Shown: piece by piece, positions 1 through 6,149 of the stretch | How the letters are laid out: every line of letters begins with the position of its first letter | Numbering within the stretch: position 1 is the first letter of the stretch | Assembly: GCA_029880285.1 (NCBI GenBank) | Contig: JAOUOS010000009.1 | Location: forward strand, 871-64,870 | Length of the DNA: 64,000 nt | From: Spirochaetia bacterium | Lineage (GTDB): Bacteria > Spirochaetota > Leptospiria > Turneriellales > JAOUOS01 | Direction: 5' to 3' | Program-made: the position numbers and the translations under genes | Notes under the pieces: generated by a model | The model's database searches: none | What the model was told of the DNA's origin: nothing | The model's input: only the letters and a program-made list of their open reading frames with translations

Positions 1-153
1 GTGGATAACTTTTTTTTAAATGGCAAGCATACTGTTTTCGGCAAAGTAGTAAAAGGGCAAGCTGTATGCGAGAAAATTTCTACAGTAGAAAGAGATAATA
101 GAGACAAACCCAAAAATCCGGTAATTATGACCGAAGTTCGGGTTTTAAAATAA
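1..153 (+). CDS. Cyclophilin-type peptidyl-prolyl isomerase, 3' end (partial)
   Basis: Manual translation VDNFFLNGKHTVFGKVVKGQAVCEKISTVERDNRDKPKNPVIMTEVRVLK*. LNGKHTVFGKVV is the cyclophilin C-terminal motif. Confidence 0.9.
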   Translation: MDNFFLNGKHTVFGKVVKGQAVCEKISTVERDNRDKPKNPVIMTEVRVLK

Positions 154-155
154 AA

Positions 156-1202
156 TTGTCTGATATATCAAAAAAAAAAGCGGGGATTATAGGAGCCGGG
201 GGATTTACCGGTAAAGAACTTCTATTTCTTATTGCAAAACATAAATATTTTGAAATTTCATACGCTACATCAAACGAATACGCGGGTAAAAAAATCTCTG
301 ATGTTTTTCCTGAAATTAAAACAAAAACTTATGATAATCTTAAGTTTTTAAATCACCCTGAAGATATTACTAAAGTACCGGAACTTGATGTTATCTTTTT
401 AGCGGTACCAGATGAAACTTCAGTAAAATTTACTCCGCTTCTTTTAAAACGAGGATTTAAGGTAATTGATTTATCGGGAGCCTGGCGCATTCAAGATGAA
501 GAAATTTTTAAAAAATATTATGGTATAGAGCGAAATGACCCAGAAACATTAAAAAAAGCAATTTTCGGATTAACTGAGATAAACCGGGAAAAAATAAAAG
601 GAGCAAACTTAATTGCAAATCCGGGCTGTTATCCCACAGCCGCTCTTTTGCCTTTTTATGTAATAAAAGACTATTTAAATTCATTTGACAACCAAATATT
701 TATAGACGCGAAATCGGGCACAAGCGGCGCAGGAGGCAGAAAAGAAAAAGACACACTCGCTTTTTCAACTGTTTATGAAAATTTTAGAGCATATAAAACA
801 GACGGCCACCAGCATGAACCTGAAATCAATCAGGAACTTATGCCTTTTTTAAAAGGTGCCCAAGTAACTTTTACTCCTTATCTTTTACCTGTTTTTAGAG
901 GAATTTTATCAACCTCTTACTTAAAAGTAAATTCAGATATTGACGAAGAAAAGTTAAAACAAAAAATAAAACAAATAATAGAAAATGAACCCTTTATAAG
1001 ATTTTATGAATCACCTAATGAAATAAATCTTAAAAATGTGCAAAATACAAATTTTTTAGACTTTTCGTTTCTTTACAATAAACGTAAAAATACATTTATA
1101 ATTTTTTCTGCTATTGATAACTTACTTAAAGGAGCAGCAGGGCAGGCCGTTCAAAATTTAAATGTAATTTTTAACTTTTCAGAAACTGAAGGCCTGCTAT
1201 AA
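156..1202 (+). CDS. argC: N-acetyl-gamma-glutamyl-phosphate reductase
   Basis: GAGGFTG Rossmann motif, IANPGCYPT catalytic motif, SGTSGAG, IDNLLKGAAGQAVQNLN. Confidence 0.97.
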   Translation: MSDISKKKAGIIGAGGFTGKELLFLIAKHKYFEISYATSNEYAGKKISDVFPEIKTKTYDNLKFLNHPEDITKVPELDVIFLAVPDETSVKFTPLLLKRGFKVIDLSGAWRIQDEEIFKKYYGIERNDPETLKKAIFGLTEINREKIKGANLIANPGCYPTAALLPFYVIKDYLNSFDNQIFIDAKSGTSGAGGRKEKDTLAFSTVYENFRAYKTDGHQHEPEINQELMPFLKGAQVTFTPYLLPVFRGILSTSYLKVNSDIDEEKLKQKIKQIIENEPFIRFYESPNEINLKNVQNTNFLDFSFLYNKRKNTFIIFSAIDNLLKGAAGQAVQNLNVIFNFSETEGLL

Positions 1203-1206
1203 TCAT

Positions 1207-1614
1207 TTATTCGCGTTCTACTTCTTGGTAGTTTACATTTTCAGGTGAAAAGGCGTTATAAAAATAATCATAAAGCTTTCTTGCTTTATTTGAATTATCT
1301 GTTGTTACATTACAAACAAATATATCAAGTGTAATGTAATTTTTTTCTGGCCATGTGTGAATGGCAACATGAGATTCAGCCAATATAACTGTACCCGTAA
1401 CACCCGATTCAGGAAATTGATAAAAAGCTCTGCCGACTTCTGTAAGTTCTACGTCTCTAACTTTTTCTGAGCAGAATGATTCTAAAAACTCAGAAACTGT
1501 CATAAGGTCATATCCATCTTTACAGTTGTAAAATTCTGTTAAAATGTGTATACCTTTTTTTGGCACTTTATTTGATCGTATATCAAATACACTTTTTTCT
1601 TTCGTTTGTTGCAT
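1207..1614 (-). CDS. speD: S-adenosylmethionine decarboxylase proenzyme
   Basis: GVTGTVILAESHVAIHTWPE self-cleavage (ESH) motif. Start moved to the ATG at 1614, behind a G-rich SD (AAGGGGGG). Confidence 0.93.
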   Translation of the reverse strand: MQQTKEKSVFDIRSNKVPKKGIHILTEFYNCKDGYDLMTVSEFLESFCSEKVRDVELTEVGRAFYQFPESGVTGTVILAESHVAIHTWPEKNYITLDIFVCNVTTDNSNKARKLYDYFYNAFSPENVNYQEVERE

Positions 1615-1745
1615 ATTCCCCCCTTGCAGTAGTTTTTCGCGAGAGAACGGTTCACAACCTTTTGTTTTTAGAGTATTTGGGCTACCGCTAGGAGGGCGGC
1701 AAAGCAATTAGCTTATGCCAATAATGCTGTAGCTCTCTAAAAACA
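1615..1745 (-). promoter_or_regulatory. Structured 5' leader of speD, candidate cis-regulatory RNA
   Basis: Perfect 11-bp stem (1745-1735 with 1673-1663) encloses inner helices. Loop CCCUCCU and downstream GUUCUCUC are both complementary to the speD SD region. Confidence 0.6.
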
Positions 1746-1821
1746 TATCAGGTATGATTTGCCGTACATCTCAAATTTATTGGAACCAAAATTAAAATTG
1801 AATTTACGCTGTCAAAAATAA

Positions 1822-2775
1822 TTAAGTGTAATTATTAAAAATTTTTTCAATTTTTAACGATTCCTCTAAATTAATCTCTAATTCAGCCGCGGCCGCGTTT
1901 TCTTTTGCCTGTAACTCATTTCGCGCCCCTGCTATTGCCGATGTTACACCTTTTTTGTGCAAAACCCACGCTAAAGCTAGAGTTCCGGCTGATACATTTT
2001 TTTCTCGCGCGATTTCTTTTAGTTTATCAACTGCTTGAACTATTTTTGAAAATAAAGGTTCTTTGAAAAAATAATCTTTTTTACGCCAATCATCTGAAGC
2101 AAGATTTTTTAATTTTTCATGATTAAAACTGCCAGATAACAAGCCCGCCTGCATTGGACTATACGCTAAAGTCGCGGTTTGATTTTTATCGCAAACCGGC
2201 AGCACATCTTTTTCAATTTCACGTTTTAACAAACTAAAAGGCGGCTGGGATGAATCTACATGACCTATCTTTTCACAGTTTTCAATCATATCTGCCGTAT
2301 AATTGCTTACGCCAATATAACGTACCTTACCTTCTTCTTTTAATTTAACCATTTCGCCCCAGCTTTCTTCAATAGATGTATTAGGATCGGGCCAGTGAAT
2401 TTGATATAAATCGATTGTTTCGGTTTCAAGCCGTTTTAAACTGTCTTCGCATTCTTTTCTAATACTTTCTGCCTTATTATGTCTTTGAATACGTCCCCTA
2501 TCATCCCATACCAGACCGCATTTTGTGGCCACAAATATATCTTCATTAATTTCTTTTAGGGCTTTCGCTACAATTTTTTCAGCATGCCCTAGCCCGTATG
2601 CGGGCGCGGTATCAATCCAGTTTATACCCTGTTCAACAGATTTAATAACAGCTTCAATAGATTTTTTATCTTCTTGTTTGCCCCAGCCAAACTGCCAAGG
2701 ACCTCCTATGGCCCATGTTCCTAACCCTATAACTGTAATTTCGGGACCATTTTTACCCAGTTTTCTTTTTTTCAT
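1822..2775 (-). CDS. Aldo/keto reductase
   Basis: GLGTWAIGG, IDTAPAYG, IDLYQIHWPD, YIGVSN, YSPMQAGLLSG. Confidence 0.95.
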   Translation of the reverse strand: MKKRKLGKNGPEITVIGLGTWAIGGPWQFGWGKQEDKKSIEAVIKSVEQGINWIDTAPAYGLGHAEKIVAKALKEINEDIFVATKCGLVWDDRGRIQRHNKAESIRKECEDSLKRLETETIDLYQIHWPDPNTSIEESWGEMVKLKEEGKVRYIGVSNYTADMIENCEKIGHVDSSQPPFSLLKREIEKDVLPVCDKNQTATLAYSPMQAGLLSGSFNHEKLKNLASDDWRKKDYFFKEPLFSKIVQAVDKLKEIAREKNVSAGTLALAWVLHKKGVTSAIAGARNELQAKENAAAAELEINLEESLKIEKIFNNYT

Positions 2776-3788
2776 AATTTAATCGCGCCTTTATATTTAT
2801 TTAACCACTCATTGTATTCTTCAATAAAATACCGAAGCCTTGTTTTTTTAAATTCTCTTGTAGAGGTTAAAATTAAATAATCATCACAGTTTATATCGCG
2901 TGACATTTTTTCGGCAGTTTCTGTTAAATAGTCACTTGAAGAACCATGAATCATCGAGTATAAACTATAAGGAAAATCAGAAATAGGCGTTCTTGAATAA
3001 CAGTGACTCACATCAGGAAATTGAGCGAGTTTTTCTCCCGCTTTATCTAAATTTTCAGGTTTTACATTCCAAACAGCCATACCGTTAAAAGTAACGCCCA
3101 TTTTTCTGTGCATAAAAGTACCAATATATTTTCTTACCGCGCCCCCCATATTTTCATTTAAAAAGTTAATAATTTCTTCTTCTTGTGCGTTATTTTCATC
3201 AGCCAGAACTTTAAACGGATTTTTTACGGCAGGTAAATCTTTTTGAATAATTTGAATTAAGCGTTTATTTTTTTCGGTAATTTCAATTTGTTTTTTATTT
3301 ATTGAGTGAATTGTTTTTTCAGAAACATTTGTTTTATTCTTTAAATCTACCACTACGCCTATTTTATATACTTTTATTTTTTTAAGGGGGTGTATATTTG
3401 AAATACCGGTTAAAGACGAAAGTATTTTTATATCTTCTTCTACGCCATTTTTTCTTTCTGACGCTATAGTAAACCATAAGTTATATTTATGATTTCTTTG
3501 ATAATTATGAGTAACCAGAGGATGTTCAGAAATTACAGAAGCAGTATCTTCTATTTTTTCTGAAGAGACCTCGGCGCACACAAGAGCTGATTCATAGCCT
3601 AAAAGTTCACCCTCCATGACTGCTGATATTTCACGCAGCCTTTTTGTATTTTTCCATTCCTGAATTTTTAATAAAACATCCTCTTCGGTTGAATTAATTT
3701 GCTCTGCCAATACCTTAAAAGGTTCTTTATCAAGAGGAAATTTTTTTTGCAAAAGCTTGGCTAATTCGTTTTCTTGTTCTAAATTCAT
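2772..3788 (-). CDS. Fused siroheme decarboxylase (NirDL / AhbA-AhbB type)
   Basis: Two Lrp/AsnC-like halves: VTHNYQRNHKYNLWFT (AhbA/NirD-like) and HRKMG...VSHCYSR...YSLYSMIHG (AhbB/NirH-like). Confidence 0.85.
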   Translation of the reverse strand: MNLEQENELAKLLQKKFPLDKEPFKVLAEQINSTEEDVLLKIQEWKNTKRLREISAVMEGELLGYESALVCAEVSSEKIEDTASVISEHPLVTHNYQRNHKYNLWFTIASERKNGVEEDIKILSSLTGISNIHPLKKIKVYKIGVVVDLKNKTNVSEKTIHSINKKQIEITEKNKRLIQIIQKDLPAVKNPFKVLADENNAQEEEIINFLNENMGGAVRKYIGTFMHRKMGVTFNGMAVWNVKPENLDKAGEKLAQFPDVSHCYSRTPISDFPYSLYSMIHGSSSDYLTETAEKMSRDINCDDYLILTSTREFKKTRLRYFIEEYNEWLNKYKGAIKL

Positions 3789-3798
3789 TGGTTTTTAT

Positions 3799-4998
3799 TT
3801 ATAATCCGGTTTGAAAAGCTCTCCATATACCAAAAATTCCTGATGGCGACTTTAAAGGAATTCTCTTTAATTCTTCTCGCGTTAAGGCGTTAACAATTAT
3901 AAATTCATTGGTCATGTTACTTGAAATAAAAGCTTTATCACCTCTGGGTGTAAATACCATATGAAATATTTTTTTGCCAAAATTTATAACTTCAATTGAT
4001 TTTTCAGTTATAGTATCAATTATTTCAACTTTACCGTCATCTTTTTCGCCAGAGAAAGATATCCAAATTTCTTTTTGATTCGGATGTACAACAGCGTACA
4101 CGGGATCGCCAGCCAGCTCAATATATTTTTGAAATTTATAATCAATACTCGAAATAACGGCCAAACGTTTTTTACCGGGTAGGGGTATAAAAATTTTATT
4201 ACCAGCTACCGCCCAGGCTTCCATATGCGGCATTTTTACCGGAATTCTATCTACCTCTTTCGCGTCTTTAAAATGCACTGGTTTGGCCGCAGGGTTATTT
4301 TCCCAAAGGTCAACAAGGCTAATTTTTTCAGATTTAAAATGACCGGTTACATAATACCTGCCTTCAGGAGAAATTAAAGCATCAAAAGGAAAAGACGCCA
4401 CAGCTTTTATTTTTCTTTTAATCTTATAGGGCACGGGGCCTGTTTTATTATTTGTCTCGGGCATAAGTTCCCATATTTCATCGTTATCCATTAACGCGCA
4501 TAAAAATGTATTATTAGCGCCATCAACAAGGCCGGTAACTCTTGAAAGTGTAGTTTCGTTTTCAATATCGCCAGATATACGATTTGTAACGGTAAAGGTT
4601 TCAGTATCAACAAAAGTAATACCTCCCGGCTCATATTCTGATACAGCGATAGTTCTTCCGTCTTGTGAAATACCAAGACCAATGGAATTTTTCGATGTTT
4701 GAATATAACCATCTTCTTTCATTGTTTCAAGGTTTACTCTGGTTAAAACACCATTTCTTGTCGCTATAAATCCATAATGCAATTCAGGATCAAATACCAT
4801 GCTCGCGTGACGCAAATTGCCTGAAAGAGAAATTCTGCTTACTAATTCCATTGTTTTATAATCAATAACGGCCATACTTTCAGAAGCACGCTCTATGACA
4901 AATACCTTCGTTCCTAAATTCATAGGTTTCTTTTCTTCTGAACATGCCGTCAGTACCAAAGAAATAAAGGCCGCCATAATAATTATTTTTTTTCTCAT
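3799..4998 (-). CDS. nirF: Heme d1 biosynthesis protein NirF (cytochrome d1 beta-propeller lipoprotein)
   Basis: VIERA, LRHASMVF, KMPHMEAWA, C-terminal SPSGIF. Start moved to 4998 (SD AAAGGAG, lipobox LTAC). Confidence 0.85.
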   Translation of the reverse strand: MRKKIIIMAAFISLVLTACSEEKKPMNLGTKVFVIERASESMAVIDYKTMELVSRISLSGNLRHASMVFDPELHYGFIATRNGVLTRVNLETMKEDGYIQTSKNSIGLGISQDGRTIAVSEYEPGGITFVDTETFTVTNRISGDIENETTLSRVTGLVDGANNTFLCALMDNDEIWELMPETNNKTGPVPYKIKRKIKAVASFPFDALISPEGRYYVTGHFKSEKISLVDLWENNPAAKPVHFKDAKEVDRIPVKMPHMEAWAVAGNKIFIPLPGKKRLAVISSIDYKFQKYIELAGDPVYAVVHPNQKEIWISFSGEKDDGKVEIIDTITEKSIEVINFGKKIFHMVFTPRGDKAFISSNMTNEFIIVNALTREELKRIPLKSPSGIFGIWRAFQTGL

Positions 4999-5018
4999 AA
5001 ATTCTCCTTTTGCTTTCA

Positions 5019-6149
5019 TTAAATATAACAAGATGGATCTTCTTCCCACATATCATTATAAACCGCGAGAGCTCTTTCTCTGTGAGAGCCTCTGCAAATT
5101 TCAACATAATCGCAGTTTTTGCATTTGCCCTTTAAAAATTTAGTTCTAATTCGTAAACTCTCTATTAAACTGTTTTCTAATATTTCAGATAAATCTTTTT
5201 CAAGTAAATTTCCGCAGGTTGAAGTCTGCCAAAATTGATCAGGATGAACATTCCCTTTATAGTCGATGTTCAATAGTTTTTCGCCCGCAGTATTACCGCC
5301 TCTTTTTTTTAACAAATCATAAATTAAATTGGCTGAAGATTCTTCAAAGTTTTCTTTCGCGTATAAATATAAATAAACTCCATCGGCATCATTACCCCCT
5401 GTGACAATATTTAAAGGGATATTGTTATCAATATATTCTAAAGATTTTTCAAATATAAAGTTCATTAAGTTTTTAGTTTCTATTTTTTGCACATCATATT
5501 TTGAAAACGCCTTTCCTCTGCCGCCGTAAACCAAATGAGAAAGATAAAATCTGTGAATATTATTTTCAATGGCCAAGTTTAACATATCACCAAGCTGGGC
5601 ACTGTTTTTATCAGTAAGGGTAATTCTAATTCCCGTTTCAAGACCGGCATTTGCCGCGTTTTTAATACCTTCTAATGCCTTTAAAAAGGCGCCAGACATT
5701 CCTCTGTATGAATCGTTGAAATCAGACAATCCGTCTATACTTACGCCCACATAATTAATACCCGATTTTTTCAGGTTCTGAGCTTTTTCTTTTGAAATTA
5801 AAACGCCATTACTTGAAAGATGACAATGAATATTTTTTTTTGCCGCGTACTCAATTATATTAAAAACATCATCTCTTAAAAGAGGTTCGCCTCCTGAAAA
5901 AATTATAATTTTTATGCCATAATCAGAAAGTTTATCGATAATTTTATACATTTCACTAGTACCTAATTCATCATTATTTTTTTTTAATTTAGCAGAAGCG
6001 TAACAATGAGGGCATGTCATATTGCATTCATTTGTAATGTTCCATACAATAACCGGCGGCATATTTTTATGAAACCGAGGTATATCTTTTTTTACGATTT
6101 CATCTGAATTTTTTAAAGCGTACCGAAGAATTTGAGTGACACTCAGCAT
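5019..6149 (-). CDS. nirJ: Radical SAM/SPASM heme d1 (NirJ) or Ahb-pathway (AhbC-like) enzyme
   Basis: VWNITNECNMTCPHCY, FSGGEPL, RFYLSHLVYGGRG, VHPDQFW, SPASM cysteines, WEEDPSCY. Adjacent to nirF. Confidence 0.8.
   Translation of the reverse strand: MLSVTQILRYALKNSDEIVKKDIPRFHKNMPPVIVWNITNECNMTCPHCYASAKLKKNNDELGTSEMYKIIDKLSDYGIKIIIFSGGEPLLRDDVFNIIEYAAKKNIHCHLSSNGVLISKEKAQNLKKSGINYVGVSIDGLSDFNDSYRGMSGAFLKALEGIKNAANAGLETGIRITLTDKNSAQLGDMLNLAIENNIHRFYLSHLVYGGRGKAFSKYDVQKIETKNLMNFIFEKSLEYIDNNIPLNIVTGGNDADGVYLYLYAKENFEESSANLIYDLLKKRGGNTAGEKLLNIDYKGNVHPDQFWQTSTCGNLLEKDLSEILENSLIESLRIRTKFLKGKCKNCDYVEICRGSHRERALAVYNDMWEEDPSCYI

Follow-up and report, generated by a model that had tools for sequence, protein, structure and literature searches.

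A conserved leader of speD in one spirochaete order, possibly a translational switch of a new structural class

Several bacterial riboswitches act on translation through an aptamer that pairs with the Shine-Dalgarno (SD) sequence, as in SAM-II/SAM-V, SAM-III (the SMK box) and preQ1-II, and in eukaryotes the control of AdoMet decarboxylase by polyamines operates through a peptide-encoding upstream open reading frame (uORF). Specific polyamine sensing by RNA has been accepted only since a spermidine riboswitch derived from SAM-I was described in 2023 (Salvail et al. 2023, PMC10853860). According to that account it is a SAM-I variant with four stems and an intrinsic terminator, it precedes polyamine genes including speD, and its 13 representatives come from Gram-positive genera and from metagenomic DNA (PMC10853860). 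The ldcC motif is an orphan cis-regulatory candidate, described as a bulged hairpin, to which a possible pseudoknot of invariant bases is added (Weinberg et al. 2017, PMC5737381). Its sites are placed by the same description in the 5' UTRs of arginine, ornithine or SAM decarboxylase genes or of polyamine transport genes, in Firmicutes and in two Spirochaetes (PMC5737381).

The speD gene compared here with these systems lies in a window of 64,000 nucleotides, the whole stretch of DNA that was analysed, from a 3.3-Mb assembly in 102 contigs (labelled G000 in the comparisons) of an uncultured spirochaete that belongs to the Leptospira class. Its coding sequence occupies 1207-1614 on the minus strand (135 codons), with the ATG at 1614-1612, where the preliminary description of this DNA had placed it. 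The product is a small pyruvoyl-type AdoMet decarboxylase, which matches Pfam PF02675 (98.8 bits, E = 2.8e-28) and the NCBIfam equivalog TIGR03330 (97.2 bits for a cut-off of 75.65) and contains the processing-site motif ...LAESHVAIHTWPE.... A spermidine synthase homologue is present on another contig of the same genome. Upstream, an aldo/keto reductase gene on the minus strand ends at 1822 and is separated from the speD ORF by a spacer of 207 nt; downstream, speD faces the convergent argC (156-1202, plus strand) and is thus monocistronic. The GC-rich patch noticed earlier in this AT-rich DNA is real, with a GC fraction of 0.47 at 1600-1699 versus 0.23-0.31 at 1700-1899. No terminator-like site was found between 1100 and 2000 on either strand, which fits control at translation. 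A putative -35 box would imply a leader of about 165 nt; TTGACA or TTGACG occurs 60-90 nt upstream of the first helix of the leader, P1, at all four loci that carry the element described below, and the TTGACA of the window is absent from the list returned by a consensus promoter scan.

The speD leader element is about 135 nt long (1612-1760, minus strand) and comprises three helices, P1, P2 and P3 (Table 1). Its 101-nt core (1655-1755) folds at -31.2 kcal/mol, compared with -18.7 ± 2.9 kcal/mol for shuffled sequences (z = -4.32, none of 200 as good); over the whole 231-nt stretch, folding was not unusual relative to shuffles (z = -1.35). The preliminary description had reported an 11-bp stem closing a multi-helix junction. 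The stem is present in the sequence as it was given there, and the junction had to be abandoned: the co-varying helices are nested in a single long imperfect hairpin, unbranched and devoid of a four-stem junction. Two pairings that had been assigned to this junction fell with it, as AGCA-UUA with UAA-U-UGCU has no counterpart among the relatives and CCGC with GCGG is left only as a weak local alternative in the RNAalifold comparison. The possible outer extension of P1 has a counterpart in G001, a relative from the same family, where ACUUU/AAAGU stands at the same place.

Table 1. Coordinates of the features of the speD leader, as positions in the window; helices and the anti-SD helix are predicted.
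Feature	Position	Strand	Basis and remarks
Putative -35 box TTGACA, speD promoter	1810-1815	minus	-10 box and transcript start inferred
Possible outer P1 extension, ACCU (with AGGU 1657-1660)	1750-1753	minus	single fold; weak
P1 5' strand (UGUUUUUAGAG in G000)	1735-1745	minus	sequence, fold, pair counts, RNAalifold
P2 5' strand (GCUAC-A-GC)	1726-1733	minus	fold and pair counts; UAC/GUA core invariant
J2/3 (AUUAUU)	1720-1725	minus	six A/U-rich bases in 4/4 leaders
P3 hairpin (GGCA...UGCC, inner AAGC/GCUU)	1698-1719	minus	3/4 closing pairs double-changed in the four-sequence alignment; 100% of cells paired
Anti-SD CCCUCCU	1690-1696	minus	unpaired in the P3-P2 internal loop when the hairpin is folded
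P2 3' strand (GC-G-GUAGC)	1681-1688	minus	common to P2 and the anti-SD helix; GGUAG invariant in 4/4
P1 3' strand (CUCUAAAAACA in G000)	1663-1673	minus	6/11 pairs change on both sides in the four-sequence alignment; predicted by RNAalifold
Variable linker, includes GUUCUCUC (1641-1648)	1633-1662	minus	47% identity G000/G001; no conserved SD partner
Pre-SD segment CUACUGC	1626-1632	minus	rival of the P2 5' strand for GCGGUAG; duplex prediction
Shine-Dalgarno AGGGGGG	1618-1624	minus	GGGGG(G) invariant in 4/4; 3' half of the anti-SD helix

When 41 related genomes were searched at the DNA level, one homologous leader was recovered, that of G001, from the same family. With a protein search, close speD genes (46-77% SpeD identity) were found in 14 of the 34 genomes of the order, and the element lies directly upstream of speD in four of these 14: G000 and G001 (family f1), G004 (f4) and G005 (f5). 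The other ten leaders (families f2, f3 and f7) are short or unrelated and lack the element, and none of the 20 genomes of family f6 gave a match to the query SpeD. Covariance models were built from G000 and G001 (R1) and from all four leaders (R2). With R2 the four leaders scored 99-140 bits. The runner-up among the 34 genomes reached 24.8 bits and falls inside a long ORF, the ground on which the model match on contig C91 of G000 was dropped. The genes that neighbour speD differ in G004 and G005, which indicates that the element travels with speD. The sample amounts to only four distinct leader sequences, from one order and three families.

Conservation and covariation upstream of close speD homologues had been proposed as a check on the preliminary description, and both are found in these four of the 14 leaders. 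In a structure-blind MAFFT alignment of G000 and G001, three pairs are changed on both sides, two in P1 (U-A to C-G and G-C to A-U) and one in P2 (G-C to A-U), and in the alignment of the four leaders double changes fall in P1 and P3 (Table 1). The alignment used for the pair counts was model-fitted to the structure, so that the covariation counts lean towards that structure, and its members are all kin within one order; read in this light, 94% of cells are paired, a share that drops to 40-46% once the partners are shifted by one to three columns. P1 reads GCUUUUAAAG/CUUUAAAAGC in G001, UUUCUGGGG/CCCCAGAAA in G005 and CGUCUC/GAGACG in G004, with GC/GC beyond a bulge in the latter; P3, closed by GGCA...UGCC in G000, becomes GGCAGUU...AACUGCC in G001, GACCG-GCAA-CGGUC in G004 and GAAGCGC...GCGCUUC in G005. 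RNAalifold predicted P1 and P3 unaided; P2 was absent from its prediction, which preferred a small local hairpin in the anti-SD region (columns 58-62 with 66-71). P2, on which the switch model depends, is the weakest helix, with an invariant UAC/GUA core and flanking pairs that stand in another register in G004 and G005.

Identity between G000 and G001 is 45% at third codon positions, 47% in the linker and 66% in the core, and the tail that leads up to the AUG is identical at 21 of 21 positions. A third relative, found on one contig of run X1, is identical over 1615-1635 and diverges beyond that stretch. The unpaired junctions show little conservation save for J3/2, which is the anti-SD; J2/1 is A-rich and variable, and J2/3 keeps its length (6 nt) and A/U content, reading AUUAUU, AUUUAC, AAUUAU and ACAUUA across the four aligned leaders. 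Such poor conservation of the junctions is unlike that of most riboswitch ligand pockets.

The feature is real and under selection. We find it barely credible that the element is non-functional, either as a chance hairpin, against which the covariation and the shuffle tests both argue, or as coding sequence of a longer SpeD starting from a TTG at 1707. The latter would account for the frame that is open from 1707 into speD and for open frames of 166 aa in G004 and G005. In G001, however, an in-frame stop stands upstream of the AUG and restricts the open frame to only 150 aa, the G000 and G004 frames cross the conserved stretch in different registers and encode unrelated upstream peptides, and the SD and the AUG are invariant. 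On the stop, the unrelated peptides and the differing registers, an N-terminal extension from this TTG was rejected. A uORF or leader peptide was likewise discarded, since the short ORFs of the G000 and G001 leaders are unrelated.

The complementarity of CCCUCCU to the SD, pointed out in the preliminary description, is confirmed in the sequence. Past A1689 it extends into GCGGUAG (1688-1682), whose partner CUACUGC (1632-1626) is separated from the SD by A1625. The resulting anti-SD helix engages the 15 nt of CCCUCCU and the P2 3' strand (1696-1682) with 1632-1618; owing to the continuation past A1689 it reaches 14 pairs around one A.A mismatch and overlaps P2. In all four leaders, the best partner of the SD segment according to RNAduplex is the homologous J3/2 and P2 3' strand, with energies of -24.1, -21.5, -23.9 and -20.4 kcal/mol; among 300 dinucleotide shuffles of each, 0, 1, 0 and 1 did as well. 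The cells of this helix are paired at 92.6%, and pairing is kept through five one-sided changes and one double change, so that its support comes mainly from conservation and from the shuffle test. The anti-SD helix and P2 are predicted to be mutually exclusive, as they overlap on the P2 3' strand. In G005 the two competitors for this strand both read UACCAC (the pre-SD segment being CUACCAC), and in G000 they read UACAGC and UACUGC. The helix also crosses P1, and its coexistence with P1 and P3 would thus be as a pseudoknot, beyond what nested-fold scoring can evaluate.

A second anti-SD partner had been put forward, GUUCUCUC in the linker. It can pair with GGGGGAAU (1622-1615) and is used in this way when G000 is folded alone; G001 and G005 have no homologue of it, and its analogue in G004 is AUUCCUU. 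The competition envisaged between two anti-SD partners is replaced by another one, in which the P2 5' strand and the pre-SD segment vie for the P2 3' strand. The more general claim, that a conserved, structured and cis-acting speD leader has the layout of a translational switch with a built-in anti-SD, is supported. Taken together, these comparisons make it quite probable that the leader is under selection as an SD-sequestering element.

Sequestration of the SD by an upstream pyrimidine-rich strand is also what an RNA thermometer would display, its SD helix melting with temperature. Known RNA thermometers, however, use short, mismatched helices that are far less stable than the 14 pairs at -20 to -24 kcal/mol predicted here, no Rfam thermometer family was matched, and the label 'sediment metagenome' of the sequencing runs that contain this DNA suggests no obvious temperature cue. 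We regard a thermometer as very improbable.

We propose that the leader adopts two forms, in which P2 and the anti-SD helix alternate. In form A, the long imperfect hairpin with P1 (11 bp), P2 (7 bp around an A.G mismatch) and P3 would expose CCCUCCU and leave the ribosome site available; in form B, the off state, the loop and the P2 3' strand (1696-1682) would pair with 1632-1618, for which P2 must open. During transcription the hairpin of form A would be complete about 30-40 nt before the SD emerges. The exposed loop might then serve as the first docking point for the SD, followed by displacement of the P2 5' strand to give form B, and the balance between the two forms would set the synthesis of SpeD. 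Spermidine or dcSAM may promote form B, in an end-product feedback; such a metabolite effector is favoured by analogy with the spermidine riboswitch, which is also described before speD (PMC10853860). The data establish a conserved structure, a conserved complementarity, predicted energies that are almost equal for the two forms and the link to speD; that the leader switches at all, in which direction and with which effector, is what we infer. Control of speD by a metabolite has a little less than an even chance.

The energetics bear on this proposal in two ways. Forms A and B lie 0.3-4.8 kcal/mol apart in all four leaders (nested models), a closeness that argues against a leader that does no metabolite sensing. 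Such a leader would act by constitutive damping of translation with mRNA stabilisation, or under the control of a protein, an sRNA or a general action of cations (Mg2+, polyamines) on the pseudoknot in place of a specific pocket. Another point against it is that a plain trap needs neither P1 and P3 nor a competing P2 5' strand kept by compensatory changes. On the other hand, forcing the SD and AUG to be single-stranded costs 6-10 kcal/mol above the minimum free energy in all four leaders, and P2 (-6.4 to -9.5 kcal/mol) is far outweighed by the anti-SD duplex (about -20 to -24 kcal/mol), so that the leader might be 'always mostly off'; both observations speak for control without a metabolite, as do the few unpaired bases conserved outside the anti-SD and the ten of 14 orthologous leaders that do without the element. 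Evaluated over a longer context, the probability that the SD is paired in nested models did not clearly separate leaders with the motif (0.44-0.88) from those lacking it (0.32-0.69), in a comparison of four with five leaders of the same order in which the start codon of one control is off by one base. We hold a leader without metabolite sensing to be a serious contender with distinctly less than an even chance, and damping or control by protein, sRNA or bulk cations is nearly as likely as a metabolite switch.

The preliminary description had suggested a similar string before speD in other phyla, a suggestion to which our searches give no support. Among 151 genomes sampled from the phylum, the 150 besides G000 yielded no instance of the motif: R1 matched only G000, and R2 matched G000 and G119. 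The G119 match is false, since its core is deleted and it sits in a spacer ahead of a non-SpeD ORF of about 320 aa. No real match came from 16 speD loci in the remaining families of the class (33-38% SpeD identity), whose hits at L141 and L144 are artefacts with no core that lie across a promoter-like TTGACA and the start of speD, nor from 79 speD loci of other phyla among the matches listed (mostly Betaproteobacteria, with a few Chloroflexota, one Balneolales MAG, one CPR bacterium and one archaeon). A protein-guided scan of genome contigs found the motif, among the matches listed, only in L018, which is the G005 contig region. Scanning metagenomes with a strict pattern (conserved core and G-run) returned 38 stretches, one of them real: L102, which equals G001 in model score and in SpeD identity. 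Chance accounts for the remaining 37, which lie almost all in GC-rich DNA and have neither speD nor a model match; at L098, among the pattern matches, an SD and an ATG precede an ORF that does not encode SpeD. In three public runs there are contigs with this DNA or its relatives, and one of these runs also contains a G001-like contig and the third variant; no RNA run was listed among those that contain this DNA. This narrow distribution (four species-level genomes and environmental contigs) limits the wider impact of the element.

The element is new to Rfam. With cmscan and all 4227 families at E<=10, the check suggested in the preliminary description, no existing family was detected on 1590-1830, nor there in a scan of 1-6000, nor on the G001, G004 and G005 leaders. 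The leader has no SAM-I model match and no SAM-I features, in agreement with the earlier statement that it is not the SAM-I-like aptamer. At 20 other speD loci of the class (E<=0.01), the only match was an unrelated weak one of sraL type. If the leader were a diverged form of the ldcC motif, it could not count as a new class. The hairpin with a bulge, the possible pseudoknot, the decarboxylase 5' UTRs and the occurrence in Spirochaetes given in the description of that motif provide a loose fit (PMC5737381). Against this stand the lack of any Rfam match at E<=10 for the four leaders, ldcC itself having been compared by description only, and a Bacillota speD region in which a scan with Rfam revealed no ldcC-type family; we judge membership improbable. 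A literature search found no description of the present speD leader element; supplements such as the 224-motif alignments lay outside its scope and may bear on ldcC.

The reading that best accommodates these observations is a switch that acts on translation, structurally of a new class and possibly a riboswitch, which we advance tentatively, at somewhat under even chances. Its most specific version is a new riboswitch class, unrelated to the SAM-I-derived one, that would sense spermidine, dcSAM, MTA or SAM and gate speD translation by a loop-initiated strand exchange between P2 and the 14-bp anti-SD pseudoknot helix; as a whole this version is doubtful. If true, it would be a second RNA leader, unrelated to the first, for the enzyme that commits SAM to the aminopropyl branch, and RNA control of this step would have evolved more than once in bacteria. 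The architecture is mechanistically tidy, with an anti-SD in an internal loop and a helix that reaches into the adjacent stem, and a construct of about 135 nt makes a small study object. Should there be no ligand, the leader would still illustrate clearly how a conserved long-range pairing can trap an SD, in a spirochaete lineage that has received little study.

Set beside the known systems, the element shares with eukaryotic uORF control its target, AdoMet decarboxylase, and the principle of controlling translation through the leader, and it differs in that the present speD leaders contain no conserved small ORF. With the spermidine riboswitch it has in common a cis-acting leader on polyamine-synthesis genes and the expected logic of end-product feedback; here the leader is an unbranched hairpin with no SAM-I match and no terminator, and the SD is sequestered instead. 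The ldcC motif, likened by description only, resembles it by its place in the 5' UTR of a decarboxylase gene (upstream of speD in four of four), its hairpin, its possible pseudoknot and its occurrence in Spirochaetes, whereas the four leaders match no Rfam family at E<=10. There is also a likeness in layout with SAM-II/SAM-V, SAM-III and preQ1-II, in which an anti-SD also lies inside the folded domain and control is exerted at initiation; in addition to having no Rfam match to them, the speD leader is distinguished by an anti-SD helix that is predicted to extend into P2 and to exclude it.

In the protein search with the window SpeD (E<=1e-10), a match was found in all 13 other genomes of families f1 to f5 and f7, whereas family f6, with 20 genomes, gave none. 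Reading of the upstream regions at three family f7 speD genes (loci L009, L010 and L011, in genomes G014, G017 and G011) showed that the folded leader is absent from their start regions but that a G-run Shine-Dalgarno (SD) sequence, GGGGGGUGAAAUG or GGGGGUGAAUUG, is kept there. Judged from these sequences, the unusually G-rich SD of speD thus predates the anti-SD structure, or is independent of it.

The region around the SD and start codon also recurs in environmental DNA. Two more contigs of sequencing run X1 matched the window exactly over 21-23 nt only (within 1612-1635) and diverged beyond; the first was a G001-like sequence, found in run X2 too, and the second a third variant. Judging by these contigs, several related lineages thus occur together, all with this invariant tail.

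Within the anti-SD region, RNAalifold predicted a small local hairpin in which RCCC, the first bases of the anti-SD, is paired with GG-GGU of the P2 3' strand. It is kept in 4/4 aligned leaders via G-U/A-U and C-G pairs, and on this folding model it could constitute a third state, masking the anti-SD itself.

Features located in the window
Feature	Window position	Columns of the four-leader alignment (A5)	Strand	Remark
Small local hairpin	1684-1697	58-71	minus	RNAalifold prediction
NirDL-like siroheme decarboxylase and cytochrome d1 / NirF-like beta-propeller protein	2772-5049		minus	directly upstream of aldo/keto reductase

The genome carrying the window and G001 share the order cyclophilin-type isomerase, argC, convergent speD and aldo/keto reductase (window 1-2775 versus locus L004), whereas the speD neighbours in G004 and G005 (AAA ATPase; glycosyltransferases) are unrelated to these. 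The NirDL-like protein carries AsnC_trans_reg2 and NirdL-like HTH domains. Together with the cytochrome d1/NirF-like protein, this decarboxylase points to a gene cluster for haem d1, the nitrite reductase cofactor.
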